Shown: positions 27,153 to 34,623 of the stretch, piece by piece | How the letters are laid out: each line of letters begins with the position of its first letter | Numbering within the stretch: the stretch's first letter is position 1 | Translations under genes and position numbers: made by a program | Notes under the pieces: generated by a model | The model's input: the letters and a program-made list of their open reading frames with translations, nothing else | The model's database searches: none | What the model was told of the DNA's origin: nothing | Origin: Gemmatimonadota bacterium | GTDB lineage: Bacteria > Gemmatimonadota > Gemmatimonadetes > Gemmatimonadales > GWC2-71-9 | Length of the DNA stretch: 64,000 nucleotides | Direction of reading: 5' to 3' | NCBI GenBank assembly: GCA_041487875.1 | Contig: JBGPOE010000002.1 | Coordinates: 8,121-72,120 of the forward strand

Positions 27153-27827
27153 TCAACTCAACGTTTTGAGCACCAGCTTGCTGCATACCTTGAGCGTGTC
27201 GAACACACCGTCGCCCCGCACCGCCACCGCCTCGAGGTACGGCGCGCGCCCCACCCATTGGCCGCCCACGTTCTCCACCAGGTTCTCACCAGGGTGCGTG
27301 GGGTCGGGGGTCACCTTCTGCTGGGGGCCGTCGTCGATCGGCCACCCGGGATTGAGCGCGGCCTGGAGGTCTTTGATCGGCGCGGCGTTGGGCAGGTCAC
27401 GCTTGTTGTACTGGATCACGAACGGGATCTTGGTCAGATCGTACCCGTACTCCGCCATGTTGTCGTACAGGTTCTGCATCGACTCGACGTTCGCTTCCAT
27501 GCGCTCAAGCTGGCTGTCGGCGACGAACACGATGCCGTCCACGCCCTTCAAGATCAGCTTGCGGCTGGCGTTGTAGTACACCTGGCCCGGCACCGTGTAG
27601 AGGTGGAAGCGAGTCTTGAAACCGCGGATGGTGCCCAGATCCACCGGCAGGAAGTCGAAGAACAGCGTGCGCTCGGTCTCGGTGGCGAGCGAGATCATTT
27701 TGCCGCGGGTCTGGGGCGAGACTTTGGCGTAGACGTGCTCCAGGTTCGTGGTCTTGCCGCCCAGACCGGGACCGTAGTACACGAGCTTGCAGTTGATCTC
27801 GCGGGACGCGTAGTTGATCATCGACAT
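27153..27827 (-). CDS. mglA: Ras-like small GTPase MglA (with an extra segment near the C-terminus)
   Basis: [71 protein letters not shown] and GVFDTLK closely follow my recollection of Myxococcus MglA. Confidence 0.88.
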
Positions 27828-27839
27828 GGACGCGTCCCC

Positions 27840-28328
27840 TTAGCCGAAGAGCTTGTCAATTTCGTCTTCCGCCCCTTCGAGCAGCCCCTTTTGCTGCGCC
27901 GAGCCGCCCGTCCCCACGCGGTTGAACATCTCCTCGAACACCTTGTTGAGACTCTCCACCACGCTGCGCGCCTTGAGCTTCACCAGGCCGAGGGTGGCGC
28001 GCTGATCGAACAGCACCACCAGGATGACGCGCTTCGCCACGTCGGCGAGATACATCGATTCCTTCTCGCCCTGGTGCACGAGCGAGGCGAACTCCGGCTC
28101 GCCGATCATCTTGGCGAGCTGGTCGTTGGCGCTGAAATCGGCGGCGGTGAGTGAGGCGAAGGCGGTGGGATCGAAGTGCGGTGTCTCGCCGACCGTGGCG
28201 ACGAGCTGTCCCGTGCGATCCACGAGCAGCGCGCAGCGCGCGTTCGACTCGCGCAGATACGCCTGGAGATGCGTCTGAATCTGCTTGAAGTCGTTTTCGC
28301 TGAACGACCAGCTGGCCGCACCCGTCAT
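27840..28328 (-). CDS. mglB: Roadblock/LC7-domain protein MglB (MglA GAP)
   Basis: Lies directly upstream of mglA on the same strand. Roadblock-like core (ARCALLVDRTGQLVATVGE...ILVVLFDQRATLGLVK). Confidence 0.8.
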   Translation of the reverse strand: MTGAASWSFSENDFKQIQTHLQAYLRESNARCALLVDRTGQLVATVGETPHFDPTAFASLTAADFSANDQLAKMIGEPEFASLVHQGEKESMYLADVAKRVILVVLFDQRATLGLVKLKARSVVESLNKVFEEMFNRVGTGGSAQQKGLLEGAEDEIDKLFG

Positions 28329-29305: not shown

Positions 29306-30964
29306 CTACTCCAGCAGCTCGAGATCGAGCGCGTCGGCCGCGGCATTCAACGTCGGATCCTTCTGCCGCAGCGACTTGAGCCGCTCCGCGTTGGCGCTCT
29401 GCTCGGTGAGCCGCTCGCCGCGCGCCGCCGCCGTGCCGCCGCTCCCCGCCGCCCGCTCCCCGCCGACCGCCACCCGCACGCGCAGCGGCTCCGTGACGTA
29501 GCGCCCCATGACCTGCGCCAGCGCATCGCGCTTGCGGTCGACGCCTTCGGCGTGATGCGCGTCGGTGAGCGAGAGCGTCACGACGCCGCCCGCCACGGCC
29601 GACACGACCGCCTCGGCCACGAGACTCGCGATCATCGGGTTCTCGGCGCGCACATCGGCGACGATGCGGGGCCACAGCGCGCGGAGGCGGTCGAGCGAAG
29701 CGGGACCGCGCTCCGTGGGGACAGGGGACGGGGGAATGGGGACAGGCGCTGCCGCGGATGGAGCGACGTCACGCAATTGCGGCGGCGCAGGCGGCGCCGC
29801 AGCCGGACCCTTCCCCTGTCCCCTGTCCCCTTTCCCCAACGCCGTGAGCACTTCCGCCAGCTCGACCGTCCGATCCATCATCGCCCAACGCAGCAGCAAC
29901 AGCTCGACCGCGAGGCGCGTATTGCCGCCGCGGCGGATCTGCACCTCCATTTCCCCCAGCACCGCGAGCAGCCGGACGACGTCGGGCGGCGGCAGCCGGC
30001 CGGCAGCGCCCCGTACCACCTGCGCCAACCCCTCCGTGAGCCCCTCGGGCTGGCCGCCCAGCCCCGCGATCAACAGCGCGCGCAGGGTCTCCCCCGCCCC
30101 ATCCACGAACTCGCCGAGGTCCGCGCCCGCCTCGAGCAGGCGCTCGACCAGGGGAAATACGCCGGCGGCATCGCGCTCGGCCACGAGGCGCAGCATCTCA
30201 CCGTACAGCTCGTCGGGAATGAGACCGAGGACCGCGCGCACCCGGGCGGCGGTGATCGGACCTTCGCCGAAGGACAGCACCTGATCCAACACCGACAGGG
30301 CGTCGCGCATGCCGCCGTCCGCGCTCTTGGCGATGAGGTGCAGCGCGTCGTCCGCGGCGGCGATGCCCTCCGCGCGCACCACGGCCTGGAGCCGCTCCGC
30401 GATGGCGTGCGGCCCGATGCGGCGGAAATCGAACCGCTGCAGCCGCGACAACACGGGCGCCGCGGTCTGGGCGATCTTGTGCGGCTCGGTGGTCGCGAAC
30501 ACGAAGACGACTTTGGGCGGCGGCTCCTCCAGGATCTTGAGCAGCGCGTTCCACGCCTCCCGCGTGAGCATATGCGCCTCGTCCACGATGTAGACCTTGT
30601 GGTGGCCTTCGGTGCTCGCCGCGTACATCGCGCGCTCGCGCAGATCGCGCGCGTCGTCCACACCGCGGTTGGACGCGGCGTCGAGCTCCACCACGTCGAG
30701 CCCCGCCGATCCATTCCACGTGCGCAGGCAGGCGTCGCACTCGCCGCATGGCTCGCCCGCCACGGCGCCTTTGCGCTCGCAGTTCAAGGCCATCGCGAGG
30801 ATGCGCGCCGCCGTCGTCTTGCCGACGCCCCGGGGGCCCGCGAACAAATAGCCGTGCGCGGCACGCCCCTGCGCCACGGCGCCCCGTAACGCCGCGGCCA
30901 CATGGTCCTGAGCGATCAAGTCGGCGAAGCGTTTGGGGCGGTACTTACGGGCGAGGGCGATCAT
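29306..30964 (-). CDS. dnaX: DNA polymerase III subunit gamma/tau
   Basis: MIALARKYRPKRFADLIAQ, Walker A GPRGVGKTT, zinc module CGECDAC and the SRC region. It contains a low-complexity insert encoded by 29718..29837. Confidence 0.92.
   Translation of the reverse strand: MIALARKYRPKRFADLIAQDHVAAALRGAVAQGRAAHGYLFAGPRGVGKTTAARILAMALNCERKGAVAGEPCGECDACLRTWNGSAGLDVVELDAASNRGVDDARDLRERAMYAASTEGHHKVYIVDEAHMLTREAWNALLKILEEPPPKVVFVFATTEPHKIAQTAAPVLSRLQRFDFRRIGPHAIAERLQAVVRAEGIAAADDALHLIAKSADGGMRDALSVLDQVLSFGEGPITAARVRAVLGLIPDELYGEMLRLVAERDAAGVFPLVERLLEAGADLGEFVDGAGETLRALLIAGLGGQPEGLTEGLAQVVRGAAGRLPPPDVVRLLAVLGEMEVQIRRGGNTRLAVELLLLRWAMMDRTVELAEVLTALGKGDRGQGKGPAAAPPAPPQLRDVAPSAAAPVPIPPSPVPTERGPASLDRLRALWPRIVADVRAENPMIASLVAEAVVSAVAGGVVTLSLTDAHHAEGVDRKRDALAQVMGRYVTEPLRVRVAVGGERAAGSGGTAAARGERLTEQSANAERLKSLRQKDPTLNAAADALDLELLE
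29718..29837. repeat. Intragenic inverted pair of heptamer arrays inside dnaX
   Basis: GGGGACA GGGGACG GGGGAAT GGGGACA at 29718..29747 and the C-rich complement at 29808..29837 agree at about 24 of 30 positions. The total length is 120 nt. Confidence 0.8.
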
Positions 30965-31091: not shown

Positions 31092-32135
31092 CTAGCGCGA
31101 AGACACACACGGCACTACCCCGGGCACGGCCTCGGAGAGCACCGCCGCCGTGAGGGTACGCTTGAGTCCCGCCGCGGACACGGCGAGGACGGTGGTGCCG
31201 CCGCCCCGCGGCTCGAGCTCCACGGTTGCGGCGCCCGCGGCGGGCGTCACGACGCCGATCTTTAGGACGCGTTCGTCCGTCGATACGACCGCCACGGTGT
31301 CCACAGCCAGCGGCGTGTCGAACGAATCGAGCACGCGCACGCCCAGCGCGACGCGCGCGCCGGCCGAAAGCACGAGCAATCCCACGAGCGTCTGGCCGCC
31401 GCAGGACAGCGCGAGGCGCGCCGGCGCGCCCGTGGCCGGCAGGATCGTGACCGGCAGTGCGACGGACCCGAGCGACGCCGTGACCACAGCCGGGAGCGGC
31501 TGCGCGCCGAACGTGACGCCGATCGCGGTGCGGCCCAGGGCGTCGGTCACGGTGCTGGCGGCGTCGAGGGTCGCGTTGGTGGCTGTGAGCGTCACGGGCA
31601 CGGCGGCGAGTGGGGTACCGCTCGAGTCTCGTGCCGTGAACACGAGCGCCGCCGCCAGTCGTTGTCCGGCCGTCCCGCGCATGCTGGTCGCCTCCCACGC
31701 CGAGTGGGCCGCATCGGCCCGGCTCGCGCGCGGCGGGGCCACGAGCGCGGCGGCGGGCGCCGCGGCGGCTGGGGCCGCGCCCGGGGGAGCGGGTCGCGGG
31801 CCGACGCGGGGAGCGGGCGCTCGTGCCGGCACGGTGTCGCGGCGTGGCGGCGGGGCCGCCGCTCGCGGTTGGGCCCGGCGCACGCATCCGTCGATCTCCC
31901 GGAAGACAGCGGGGCTCGCGCCCAGCGCCGTGAAATCCGCGCGGTCGCGGCCCGTGGGCGTGAATGTGAGACAGTTGCGCTTGATCAAACCCGCGATCTC
32001 TGCGGACCCGAGCGCGGAGCCCGAAAGGAGGCGGACCAGATCGCTCTTGCGCAGGGGCTGCAGCTGTTGCGCGCGCACGGGCCCGGCCACCAGCGCGAGC
32101 GCGAGCGCCGCCGCCGCTCTCACGGACGCGCGCAT
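31092..32135 (-). CDS. Secreted hypothetical protein with a Cys-containing N-domain, a Pro/Ala linker and an Ig-like C-terminal region
   Basis: Signal peptide MRASVRAAAALALALVAGPVRAQ. The C-terminal beta-rich repeats (VTLTATNATLDAASTVTD..., LGVRVLDSFDTPLAVDTVAVVSTDERVL) look Big_2-like. Confidence 0.6.
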   Translation of the reverse strand: MRASVRAAAALALALVAGPVRAQQLQPLRKSDLVRLLSGSALGSAEIAGLIKRNCLTFTPTGRDRADFTALGASPAVFREIDGCVRRAQPRAAAPPPRRDTVPARAPAPRVGPRPAPPGAAPAAAAPAAALVAPPRASRADAAHSAWEATSMRGTAGQRLAAALVFTARDSSGTPLAAVPVTLTATNATLDAASTVTDALGRTAIGVTFGAQPLPAVVTASLGSVALPVTILPATGAPARLALSCGGQTLVGLLVLSAGARVALGVRVLDSFDTPLAVDTVAVVSTDERVLKIGVVTPAAGAATVELEPRGGGTTVLAVSAAGLKRTLTAAVLSEAVPGVVPCVSSR

Positions 32136-33598
32136 CGCGAGCGATCGAAATGCCGCTCGACTGAGTCCACCGCGGCGTACACCGCCTGGTCGCGCCCGGC
32201 GTGCACGGCGTCGAGCGGGCCCGTCAGCGCCTTGCGTCGCAGGTTGTAGGTGGTCCAACCGTTTTCCACCGCCACCACCCCGCGCGCCAGGTCGGTGCAC
32301 GTCATCTGACGGTTGTCGAACAGGCGTGCGCGATCGTTGTAACTGCGCACGGTGCCGGTCATCGTGTCCGACACGCGCTCGAATCCATGGAGGGCGGAAT
32401 CGCCGACCGCCGTAGCCGGCGGCACAGTCGCCGCATGGCCGGCGGCGCCGGGACGAAGTCTCAGGTAGTAGTATGCTCCGCCGGCTCCCAGGCCCAGCAC
32501 CAACAGCACTCCCCAGATCCAGCCGCGGCCCGATCCCCCGCGCCGCTGCGCCTCGCTGAGCGATGCCCGGACCACGGGGCGCGACGTGCGCCGCCGCGGG
32601 TCCGACGTGCGCGGCGCGGGCGGCGGAGCGGATGGGCGTGCGGGCGTGGTCGTCCGGCGAGCAGGAGGCGGCGCGGGCGGGCCCGAGGCACGCGGCGCGC
32701 GCGGCGCGGGCACATCCGGCATCGGCGCGCCGAGCTCCATCAGCGGCAACCCTGCCGTTTCGGGGGGCCCCGCGCGGGCCACAGGCGGCGACATCGTGGC
32801 CGCCGGTCGGGGCGCCGGTGGCGGTGGCGGAGGTGGAGCGGCCGTCACCTCGAGCGTCGATCGTTCCGCGGGGGCCGATCCTCGCACCTGCGACGCGCGG
32901 GGCGCCGGCACCGCGGCGCTCGCCCCGCGCGTGGCCGCTCGGTCCGCCGTGCGGAAATTACGCCACGGCATGTGCGAGACTTTGCCGCCCGGCGCCGCCG
33001 TTTCGCGCTCGTCGATCAGCTCGTAAAAGGGCAGCGCCACGAGGGCGGTCGGCTCATTGCGGGGCGAGCGAAACAGCGCGGCGGCGGGCTGATCCGCGGT
33101 GCCGCCCAATACCAGCGCCACGTGCCACGCTTTGCCGAAAAACGTCACATGGGTCTCGAGGTCGCCCGCCGCCAGTGACAGGCCGAGCGGCGGGTGGCTG
33201 TGATACCAGCCGATCACCGCCCCGTTGGTTTTGGCAAGCTCCTTCTGGACGCGCTCCATCACGCGGCTCACGACCACGGTGGTCTTGTCGCCGTAGATCG
33301 GCTGGGTAAGACGGATGGTCGAGTCGACGACGACAAAGCGGGCGTGCGTAGCGGCGTCCTCGCACAAATCACCGGTGAGGAATCCGAGCAAGCCGCTTTC
33401 GGGCGACGCCCGGAAGTGCTCGTTGATCGCGCGCAGCGTCGACTGTCCGAAAAAGACGGGGAACTGCACCGGCGCCGCGACCGTCCCGCCTTGCGGCAGC
33501 CACAGGACCGCGCGCTCGGTCGGGATCGGCGCCTGACGCACCGGCCTTCCGGACGGGGGCGGCGGGGGCGGCGGCGGTGTCGCTCGCGGTGTGGTCAC
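32120..33598 (-). CDS. Membrane-anchored MPN+/JAMM-domain protein (Rpn11/CSN5-like motif)
   Basis: The GTG start overlaps the ltaE stop (GTGA). Motifs ESGLLGFLTGDLCED and AVIGWYHSHPPLGLSLAAGD (33161..33202). Pro-rich linkers, one TM (GWIWGVLLVLGLGAGGAYYYL), then a roughly 110-aa extracytoplasmic domain. Confidence 0.7.
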   Translation of the reverse strand: MTTPRATPPPPPPPPSGRPVRQAPIPTERAVLWLPQGGTVAAPVQFPVFFGQSTLRAINEHFRASPESGLLGFLTGDLCEDAATHARFVVVDSTIRLTQPIYGDKTTVVVSRVMERVQKELAKTNGAVIGWYHSHPPLGLSLAAGDLETHVTFFGKAWHVALVLGGTADQPAAALFRSPRNEPTALVALPFYELIDERETAAPGGKVSHMPWRNFRTADRAATRGASAAVPAPRASQVRGSAPAERSTLEVTAAPPPPPPPAPRPAATMSPPVARAGPPETAGLPLMELGAPMPDVPAPRAPRASGPPAPPPARRTTTPARPSAPPPAPRTSDPRRRTSRPVVRASLSEAQRRGGSGRGWIWGVLLVLGLGAGGAYYYLRLRPGAAGHAATVPPATAVGDSALHGFERVSDTMTGTVRSYNDRARLFDNRQMTCTDLARGVVAVENGWTTYNLRRKALTGPLDAVHAGRDQAVYAAVDSVERHFDRSRCARP

Positions 33599-34623
33599 GA
33601 GAGCGTCGTGGCGATAAGTGCCGCCGCGCGGTCGATGTCGTCGCGCGTCACGTCGAGGTGCGTCACCGCGCGCAGCCGCTTCGGGCCGAACGGCACCAGC
33701 AGCACGCCCGCCGCCGCGAGCCGGGGAATGACCGTCTCGGCCGTGTCGCCGGGGCGCACGAGGTCGATCATCACGATGTTGGTCTCGGGCGCGAGCGGCC
33801 GCACGGCGGGACAGCCCGCGAGCCGCTCGGCGAGCAGCTTGGCGTTGCTGTGATCTTGCGTGATGCGCGGCAGGTGATGCTCCAGCGCGTACAGCCCCGC
33901 CGCGGCGAGAATCCCCGACTGCCGCATCCCGCCCCCCAACCGTTTGCGGACTTCCCAGGCGCGCTCGCGCTGCGCTCGCGGAAATGCGAGACACGAGCCC
34001 ACCGGGCAGCCCAGTCCCTTCGAGAGACTGACCATGACGCTCGCCACGCCTTGCGTGAGCCGCGCCGGCGGCACGCCCAGCGCTGCCGCCGCATTCCACA
34101 GACGCGCCCCGTCCAGGTGCACCGGCAGGCCGGCGCCGCGCGCCACCGCGACGTTGGCCGCCAGCACGTCGGGGGGCATGACTTTTCCGCCCGCCGCGTT
34201 GTGCGTGTTCTCGAGCGCCACGGCCGACGCGCGCGGCACGTGCGGCGACGCCGGCCGCAGCGCCGCGCGCAGCAGCTCCGCCGTGAGCAGGCCGTCCGGA
34301 GTCGTCACCGGCCGGATCTGCACGCCGGCGAGGGCGGCGACGCCCGCGATTTCGTAATGCACGAGATGGGCGTTCGCCTCGATCAACAGCTCGGTCCCGG
34401 GGCGCGTGGCGAGGGCGATGCCCGTCTGGTTCGCCTGCGTGCCGGAGGGAAAGAACAACGCCTCCTCCATCCCCAGGAGGTCGGCCACGCGCTGCTCCAG
34501 CCGCCGCGTCGTGGGGTCGCCGTCCAGCACGTCGTCGCCGACTTCGGCCTCGGCCATGGCGCGCCGCATCGCCGCCGACGGCCGCGTGACCGTGTCGGAG
34601 CGCAGATCGATCGGCGCGCTCAT
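33595..34623 (-). CDS. ltaE: Low-specificity L-threonine aldolase
   Basis: IDLRSDTVTRPSAAMRRAM, GDDVLDGDPT, FFPSGTQANQ. Confidence 0.88.
   Translation of the reverse strand: MSAPIDLRSDTVTRPSAAMRRAMAEAEVGDDVLDGDPTTRRLEQRVADLLGMEEALFFPSGTQANQTGIALATRPGTELLIEANAHLVHYEIAGVAALAGVQIRPVTTPDGLLTAELLRAALRPASPHVPRASAVALENTHNAAGGKVMPPDVLAANVAVARGAGLPVHLDGARLWNAAAALGVPPARLTQGVASVMVSLSKGLGCPVGSCLAFPRAQRERAWEVRKRLGGGMRQSGILAAAGLYALEHHLPRITQDHSNAKLLAERLAGCPAVRPLAPETNIVMIDLVRPGDTAETVIPRLAAAGVLLVPFGPKRLRAVTHLDVTRDDIDRAAALIATTLS

Follow-up and report, generated by a model that had tools for sequence, protein, structure and literature searches.

Locus and domain organisation

We analysed a 64,000-nucleotide stretch of the genome of a Gemmatimonadota bacterium (GTDB lineage Gemmatimonadetes; Gemmatimonadales; GWC2-71-9; assembly GCA_041487875.1, contig JBGPOE010000002.1, positions 8,121 to 72,120), hereafter the window, with the focus on a minus-strand gene that encodes an MPN domain joined through a long linker and a single predicted transmembrane (TM) helix to a C-terminal helical bundle. 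This gene, hereafter the MPN gene, is located between a threonine-aldolase-type gene (ltaE) and a gene for a secreted protein with Big_1 repeats, and its product is a bitopic inner-membrane protein that is specific to this lineage and passed on vertically within Gemmatimonadales. As judged from alignments, the general-base Glu and the oxyanion Ser of the JAMM enzymes are missing in the window protein and the metal triad is kept. The G+C content is about 70% throughout the window, and the base composition of the MPN gene region is the same as that of the rest. The gene and its product comprise the following features.

32120–33598, minus strand: coding sequence of the MPN-linker-TM-helical-bundle protein, 492 aa when read from the GTG overlapping the stop codon of ltaE; an alternative start at GTG 33541 gives 473 aa
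32936–33526, minus strand: predicted cytoplasmic MPN-fold domain, residues ~25–221 (Pfam JAB, profile comparison with the PDB, AlphaFold2, Foldseek)
33392–33394, minus strand: G69, opposite Rpn11 E48, the catalytic Glu of the JAMM enzymes, in sequence and profile alignments
33287–33289, minus strand: D104 in YGDKT, in the Ins-1-equivalent loop, invariant in the ortholog group
33161–33202, minus strand: zinc-ligand motif HSHPPLGLSLAAGD, with H133, H135 and D146 invariant and A143 at the canonical Ser position
32522–32935, minus strand: low-complexity, predicted cytoplasmic linker, residues 222–359 (138 residues; 25.5% Pro, 19.7% Ala, 14.6% Arg)
32453–32521, minus strand: single predicted TM helix, residues 360–382, WIWGVLLVLGLGAGGAYYYLRLR, the sole hydrophobic segment
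32123–32422, minus strand: predicted periplasmic C-terminal domain, last 100 aa, modelled by AlphaFold2 as an antiparallel three-helix bundle (pLDDT 93.8)

An initial annotation, made by a model from the sequence alone, had described a 492-residue open reading frame coupled to ltaE through a GTGA overlap, and this gene model was recovered here on the minus strand at 32120–33598, with the overlap reading ctcGTGAcc. The start codon itself is ambiguous between GTG 33598 (492 aa) and GTG 33541 (473 aa). The NCBI protein of identical sequence (P0001) is 473 aa long, matching a start at the GTG of V20 (33541), which has GGAAGG just 5' of it, and in the alignment close homologs start at either of the two positions. 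The 19 extra N-terminal residues of the longer form (window 33539–33598) are mostly Pro and unconserved among homologs.

The N-terminal domain adopts a predicted Rpn11-like MPN fold

Sequence comparisons and the predicted structure establish the N-terminal domain as a genuine Rpn11-like MPN fold, far beyond chance. The protein scores 26 bits against Pfam JAB (PF01398; gathering cut-off 22.5) and remains below threshold for Prok-JAB (PF14464; 14.6 bits against 25), and no meaningful NCBIfam match was obtained for it or for the Big_1 protein. A single-sequence search of the PDB (phmmer) retrieved the Caldiarchaeum Rpn11 homolog (E = 1.8e-5) and Rpn11/PSMD14, and a profile built from 32 family sequences matched the archaeal Rpn11 homolog (4.9e-10) and Rpn11 (2.5e-9), followed by BRCC36, CSN5 and AMSH, with BilC as a marginal match (E = 0.2). 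The AlphaFold2 model of residues 18–221 has a predicted local distance difference test score (pLDDT) of 87.4 and a predicted template modelling score (pTM) of 0.87. In the Foldseek comparison with the PDB, Rpn11 was matched with E = 1.2e-8 and TM-scores of 0.57/0.68, alongside CSN5, BRCC36 and the archaeal Rpn11 homolog, so that structure prediction upholds the MPN fold proposed in the initial annotation. To this fold the family adds an N-terminal strand (ILW.P, with W33) and a C-terminal strand (PW.N, with W212) of its own.

Metal ligands are retained and the catalytic Glu is replaced

Both peptide strings quoted in the initial annotation are present in the translation, HSHPPLGLSLAAGD at 33161–33202. 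Conservation of the His and Asp ligands in orthologs had been proposed there as a check of the metal site, and H133, H135 and D146 are unchanged in 95 of 95 homologs, in agreement with the family alignments.

The complete eukaryote-style JAMM signature claimed in the same annotation did not stand, the gap being at the residue that carries out the chemistry. E67 in ESGLLGF, which had been read as the upstream Glu, does not correspond to the JAMM Glu: it is unconserved among the homologs, and Rpn11 E48 (in EVMGLMLG) falls on G69 in both the single-sequence (phmmer) and the profile alignments. A beta-strand of the AlphaFold2 model starts exactly at G69, and all 95 homologs have Gly, Ala or Thr in the G69 column. 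The register is confirmed by the distant relatives that do possess the Glu, since in the profile alignment of the family their Glu falls in precisely the G69 column. At the position of the canonical Ser, eight residues after the second His, the window protein has A143, with one Ser two residues earlier, just as the annotation had described. Among the 95 homologs this position is Ala in 51, Thr in 29 and Ser in 12, about 40% being Ser or Thr. With Gly at the general-base position and Ala at the Ser position, the earlier inference of a cytoplasmic isopeptidase is weakened.

JAMM enzymes with a Glu-to-Ala change are inactive and in standard use as substrate traps, and one such mutant, BilC E33A, is among the PDB profile matches of the family. 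To our knowledge, no characterised JAMM enzyme functions without the Glu. D104 is a further invariant residue: the loop that carries it aligns with the Ins-1 region of Rpn11 in the profile alignment, and D104 could be a fourth zinc ligand or a substitute base.

Membrane tether and periplasmic bundle

Five Lys or Arg residues are found in the 20 residues that precede the TM segment and none in the 20 that follow it, and this bias predicts an N-in/C-out topology, with approximately 110 residues C-terminal of the TM segment. Composition and hydrophobicity bear out the Pro-rich linker, the single TM helix and the extracytoplasmic part of about 110 aa that had been described from the sequence, and a bitopic N-in/C-out arrangement fits both the charge bias and the two invariant Cys residues of the C-terminal domain. 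These residues, C434 and C489, probably form a periplasmic disulfide, and the C-terminus of the protein is conserved as F(D/E)RSxCxRP. The C-terminal bundle has no significant fold match in the PDB (every E value exceeds 0.1, and the best hits are generic three-helix bundles), and its function is therefore not inferable from the fold.

Two short motifs recur in the linker, an STLEV-like one (S/P-T-L/I-E/Q-V-V) in 52 of 93 homologs and an LPLL/LPLM-like one in 72 of 93, both counted with loose regular expressions and without a chance expectation. They may be docking motifs.

Distribution and wider family

A word-indexed search returned 96 homologs, and every organism label among them is Gemmatimonadales. 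Scanning one genome per GTDB species revealed relatives in 193 genomes, and the best 80 loci all come from Gemmatimonadota metagenome-assembled genomes (MAGs). An exhaustive profile search extended the family to 199 cluster representatives at E <= 1e-30 and 1405 at E <= 1e-10. The C-terminal bundle is shared by 177 of the 237 closest proteins, most of which (of the 177) also have the TM segment.

Organism labels exist for few of the distant relatives, and their relationships were taken from a rough neighbour-joining tree, in which the Glu-bearing members are basal. The crown group, which includes the window protein, has the active-site pattern G/A/S/T-HH-A/S/T-D together with D104. Deeper members of the same architecture, for example P0168, P0235 and P0225, have the full E-HxH-S/T-D motif, and a cluster-mate of P0235 is labelled Gemmatimonadota. 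The loci of the full-motif Gemmatimonadota members contain housekeeping neighbours and no ubiquitin-like protein (Ubl), E1 or E2 genes. In one full-motif clade the MPN gene is preceded by an outer-membrane beta-barrel gene and is translationally coupled to a Peptidase_S58 gene downstream of it, and another clade is flanked by PBP4, TPR and RecA genes. In a Gemmatimonadota clade with E/T-HH-T-D sites and long acidic linkers (L082:993–4126, L084:8001–11059 and L085:3060–6937) the MPN gene is followed by a Peptidase_S58 (DmpA-like) gene, which overlaps or abuts it in two of these three loci; in L082 and L085 an outer-membrane beta-barrel gene is found on the opposite strand just upstream, a neighbourhood unlike that in the window.

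A second MPN-TM-bundle paralog is encoded in 14 of the 80 genome loci, directly downstream of the MPN gene or past the Big_1 gene; the window has one copy. Loci with a second paralog are L087:6162–10815, L019, L022, L023, L027, L032, L035, L037, L038, L040, L044, L049, L056 and L061. Several second paralogs are devoid of the His ligands, with GRSSD, PRSGD or SRCSD in their place. We considered whether degenerate-ligand members are evidence that the entire family is non-catalytic and rejected this argument: P0193, the one member of this kind whose locus was inspected, is a tandem second paralog beside a ligand-intact copy, and His-less second paralogs recur at other loci.

The acidobacterial relative P0158 (MBI1353552.1; MAG WGMB01000002.1, locus L081) gives a full-length match to the family profile (E = 1.1e-52). 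It is one member of a sister group in which two complete MPN+ domains in tandem precede the TM segment and the extracytoplasmic region is of a different kind. Its operon (L081:7415–15808) encodes a ThiF E1 (5.5e-56) and a YukD-like double Ubl (1.3e-11), a UQ_con E2 with a weak match (5.3e-5, below threshold) and the MPN+ protein itself, of 1113 aa, and continues with a VWA protein that has a weak Prok-RING_1 match and an FHA protein; T2SSE/T2SSF/RcpC (Tad-like) genes come after the operon. The operon looks like a membrane-associated, eukaryote-like ubiquitination cassette. The E2 family of this system comprises only 15 clusters, none of them labelled Gemmatimonadota. On these domain assignments, the MPN subfamily includes genuine parts of a bacterial Ubl-conjugation operon, and its Gemmatimonadota branch is detached from such machinery.

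Genomic neighbourhood

The genes next to the MPN gene in the window are listed below.

33595–34623, minus strand: threonine-aldolase-type pyridoxal phosphate enzyme (Beta_elim_lyase, ltaE), upstream; Pfam E = 2.9e-95; its stop codon overlaps the GTG of the MPN gene
31092–32135, minus strand: secreted Big_1 protein, 347 aa, downstream, with a 16-nt overlap (ATG 32135); signal-peptide-like start, two-Cys N-domain, Pro/Ala linker and Big_1 repeats
31974–32135, minus strand: N-domain of the Big_1 protein, ~60 residues (~25–85), with C55 and C84; tblastn shows it conserved behind the MPN gene in related loci
29306–30964, minus strand: dnaX, followed by ybaB, recR, mglB and mglA, a conserved downstream housekeeping block (Pfam)

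The assignment of the upstream gene as ltaE in the initial annotation agrees with its Beta_elim_lyase match, and a BrkB/YihY membrane protein gene (Pfam) precedes it. For the downstream gene, the 16-nt overlap and the secreted nature of the product, with its signal-like N-terminus, Cys55 and Cys84, held up; the repeats had been called Big_2-like and are Big_1 (PF02369; 37.4 bits against a cut-off of 34.9, in two stretches), with no Big_2 match reported. The N-domain of this protein has no Pfam or NCBIfam match.

The gene order fba-brkB-ltaE-MPN-(Big_1)-dnaX-ybaB-recR-mglB-mglA is nearly fixed across the best 80 genome loci. The ltaE gene is directly upstream in 62 of 74 loci, dnaX is found downstream in all 42 loci with sufficient flank, and a Big_1 homolog follows the MPN gene in 43 of 58 (74%); in 15 loci dnaX comes directly after the MPN gene, with no space for another gene. 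The MPN locus is part of a core-genome block that is inherited vertically and does not form an island. Because the whole block is syntenic among related genomes, adjacency is weak evidence for a functional tie of the MPN gene to ltaE, dnaX or the Big_1 gene, and it is for the Big_1 gene only that the 16-nt overlap and the 74% co-occurrence provide a moderate hint of a functional link. The pairing with an Ig-like protein, for which co-occurrence had been suggested as a check, is accordingly frequent and not obligate.

The initial annotation had also noted that none of the known contexts of bacterial JAMM proteins is present near the gene, and we came to the same result: the neighbours are housekeeping genes, a tblastn search with the acidobacterial E1/Ubl/E2/VWA-RING/FHA set gave no match in either the 64-kb window or any of 85 related loci, and PADLOC gave no match for the MPN protein or the Big_1 protein.

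An MglA-like small GTPase and a Roadblock/LC7 (MglB-like) protein are encoded as a pair about 4 kb downstream of the MPN gene (window 27153–28328, minus strand). A Ras-like GTPase and weak Roadblock pair is also located a few kb from the acidobacterial Ubl operon (L081:4402–5399), a parallel that may be a coincidence.

Comparison with known MPN and JAMM proteins

Like Rpn11/PSMD14 and the Caldiarchaeum subterraneum Rpn11 homolog (PDB 4O8X, 6FJV), the window protein has the MPN fold, the GWYHSHP...D motif and an Ins-1-like loop, which sits between the fourth strand and the second helix. Unlike Rpn11, it has Gly in place of E48 and Ala in place of the Ser, is extended by a Pro-rich tether, a TM helix and a predicted periplasmic bundle, contains the extra strands with the invariant W33 and W212, and is encoded outside any proteasome, Ubl or E1/E2 context.

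CSN5 ranks high among the fold matches, and the invariant acidic residue D104 of the window protein is also located in the Ins-1-equivalent loop. In the auto-inhibited state of CSN5, Glu104 of Ins-1 ligates the zinc, and D104 adjoins the column that we take, via the Rpn11 alignment, to be the equivalent of CSN5 E104. CSN5 keeps its catalytic Glu76 and is activated by substrate binding. The window protein, in contrast, has no catalytic Glu, and because of this difference its zinc site is no less likely to be permanently four-coordinate or non-catalytic.

The fold is also common to the MPN-minus scaffolds (Rpn8, CSN6, Abraxas and the MPN domain of Prp8), and a non-catalytic role in binding or dimerisation is likewise probable for the window protein. 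The second, sometimes ligand-degenerate paralog in 14 of 80 related loci resembles the MPN+/MPN- pairs of eukaryotes. In classical MPN-minus domains of the Rpn8/CSN6 type the zinc ligands are gone; in the window protein and its orthologs all three are invariantly kept.

Acidobacterial P0158 is a member of this MPN subfamily, with a match that spans all 200 residues and takes in the N-terminal W strand, and has the same succession of a cytoplasmic MPN part, a TM segment and an extracytoplasmic region. It differs in possessing two MPN domains, each with the full E-HxH-S-D motif, in its extracytoplasmic region, which is of another kind and does not contain the F..SGCxRP bundle, and in its location within a Ubl operon. 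Prok-JAB proteins, CBASS (cyclic oligonucleotide-based antiphage signalling system) Cap3 and BilC have a distantly related JAB fold; the window protein is below threshold for Prok-JAB, and BilC is a marginal match to the family profile. Their gene context is different: bacterial JAB peptidases of Ubl systems have a Ubl, E1, E2 or cGAS-like enzyme encoded with them, usually on mobile or defence islands, and no such co-encoded gene was identified within the 64-kb window.

Bacterial JAB/E1/E2/Ubl operons have been catalogued, and the MPN-TM-bundle architecture is not among them (Iyer et al. 2006, PMC1779556). We found no paper on this family in the open-access literature, a weak negative given that "JAMM" also matches "jamming".

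Possible functions of the MPN-TM-bundle protein

We favour, with moderate confidence, the interpretation that the window protein is a zinc-binding, membrane-tethered binding or scaffold module and not a canonical isopeptidase. The MPN domain would bind zinc without hydrolysing isopeptide bonds by the canonical mechanism, and would act as a peptide- or protein-binding module, akin to a natural Glu-to-Ala substrate trap or an MPN pseudo-enzyme scaffold. It would probably be dimeric, and in some genomes the partner may be the degenerate tandem paralog. The protein would couple a putative cytoplasmic partner to the periplasmic bundle, and the bundle may in turn contact the secreted Big_1 protein, which is co-encoded in most Gemmatimonadales. 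The family is probably derived from active membrane-anchored JAMM enzymes, because its deeper relatives keep the full motif.

Several points weigh against this interpretation. H133, H135, D146 and D104 are strictly conserved across homologs that are only 31–50% identical to the window protein, which implies strong selection on the metal site and would also fit a working enzyme. Furthermore, position 104 is acidic more often in Glu-less domains than in Glu-bearing ones, and D104 so could, on this alignment pattern, replace the missing base, with the caveat that the pattern is confounded by phylogeny. The cytoplasmic partner of the MPN domain is only putative, and the proposed link to the Big_1 protein is drawn from adjacency, seen in 74% of the loci of a block that is syntenic anyway.

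The conservation of the metal site and of D104 is the basis of the strongest alternative, namely, that the protein is an active, non-canonical, membrane-tethered metallopeptidase in which the base has moved from the strand Glu to D104 (YGDKT) and which acts independently of Ubl on a membrane-proximal cytoplasmic peptide or isopeptide substrate. Apart from the invariance of the three ligands and D104 across the ortholog group, position 104 is Asp or Glu in 171 of 185 (92%) Glu-less domains compared with 11 of 24 (46%) Glu-bearing ones, with zinc ligands intact in all; this contrast is confounded by ancestry because the Glu-less sequences form a single crown clade in the rough neighbour-joining tree. 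The presence of Ser or Thr at the oxyanion position in some 40% of the homologs also speaks for it, and the deeper full-motif relatives of the same architecture also occur without a Ubl context, so a Ubl-independent enzymatic role may be ancestral. However, two catalytic positions are missing in the window protein, with Gly for the Glu and Ala for the Ser, and we know of no precedent for a JAMM enzyme that acts without the Glu. We regard such a rewired active site as possible but rather unlikely.

A more elaborate scenario would make the MPN-TM-bundle family a trans-envelope system that arose from the membrane-anchored deubiquitinases of bacterial E1-E2-RING-Ubl operons, with the base rewired in the Gemmatimonadales branch from the strand Glu to D104 of Ins-1, and in which a Ubl-independent, membrane-proximal metallopeptidase or a zinc-dependent switch would be coupled across the membrane to the disulfide-stapled periplasmic bundle and the secreted Big_1 partner. 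As a whole, this scenario appears improbable.

Still less credible, and in our view very improbable, is a canonical deubiquitinase-like peptidase that would serve, like its acidobacterial relatives, a Ubl conjugation system, here with genes elsewhere in the genome. The precedent is P0158 of the same subfamily, which is encoded right after the ThiF, the YukD-like double Ubl and the weak UQ_con E2, with the VWA/Prok-RING and FHA genes next. Against it, the catalytic Glu is missing from the window protein and from all 95 homologs, homologs of the E1, Ubl, E2 and RING proteins are absent from the 64-kb window and from the 10 kb around the gene in the 85 related loci, the E2 family is rare (the 15 clusters mentioned above, none labelled Gemmatimonadota), and even the full-motif Gemmatimonadota members have no Ubl neighbours. 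Finally, a role in anti-phage defence or a mobile system (CBASS Cap3, Bil or a phage-tail JAB protein), for which nothing speaks beyond the presence of a JAB-type domain, is effectively refuted by synteny, the gene being part of a nearly fixed housekeeping block in the 80 genome loci, and has practically no probability left in view of the empty PADLOC search, the E = 0.2 of BilC against the family profile and a regional base composition that matches the rest of the window.

Conclusions

To conclude, the MPN-TM-bundle family is an uncharacterised branch of the Rpn11-like MPN proteins, anchored in the membrane and Glu-less, and all organism labels obtained for it so far are Gemmatimonadota. In the proteasome, signalosome and BRISC complexes, MPN/JAMM domains serve as metal-dependent deubiquitinases, and the bacterial relatives known to date are linked to Ubl, sulfur-carrier, CBASS or phage contexts. 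The Gemmatimonadota family departs from this: in the best 80 genome loci it is a core, syntenic and non-mobile gene whose membrane-anchored product has kept the zinc site and lost the catalytic Glu, with no Ubl machinery nearby. The relatives of this family range up to enzymes with a complete motif and thus provide a natural series for the change from an isopeptidase to a pseudo-enzyme or for the rewiring of an active site. Without by itself resolving a long-standing question, the family offers a way into the envelope biology of Gemmatimonadota, a subject that has been little explored.

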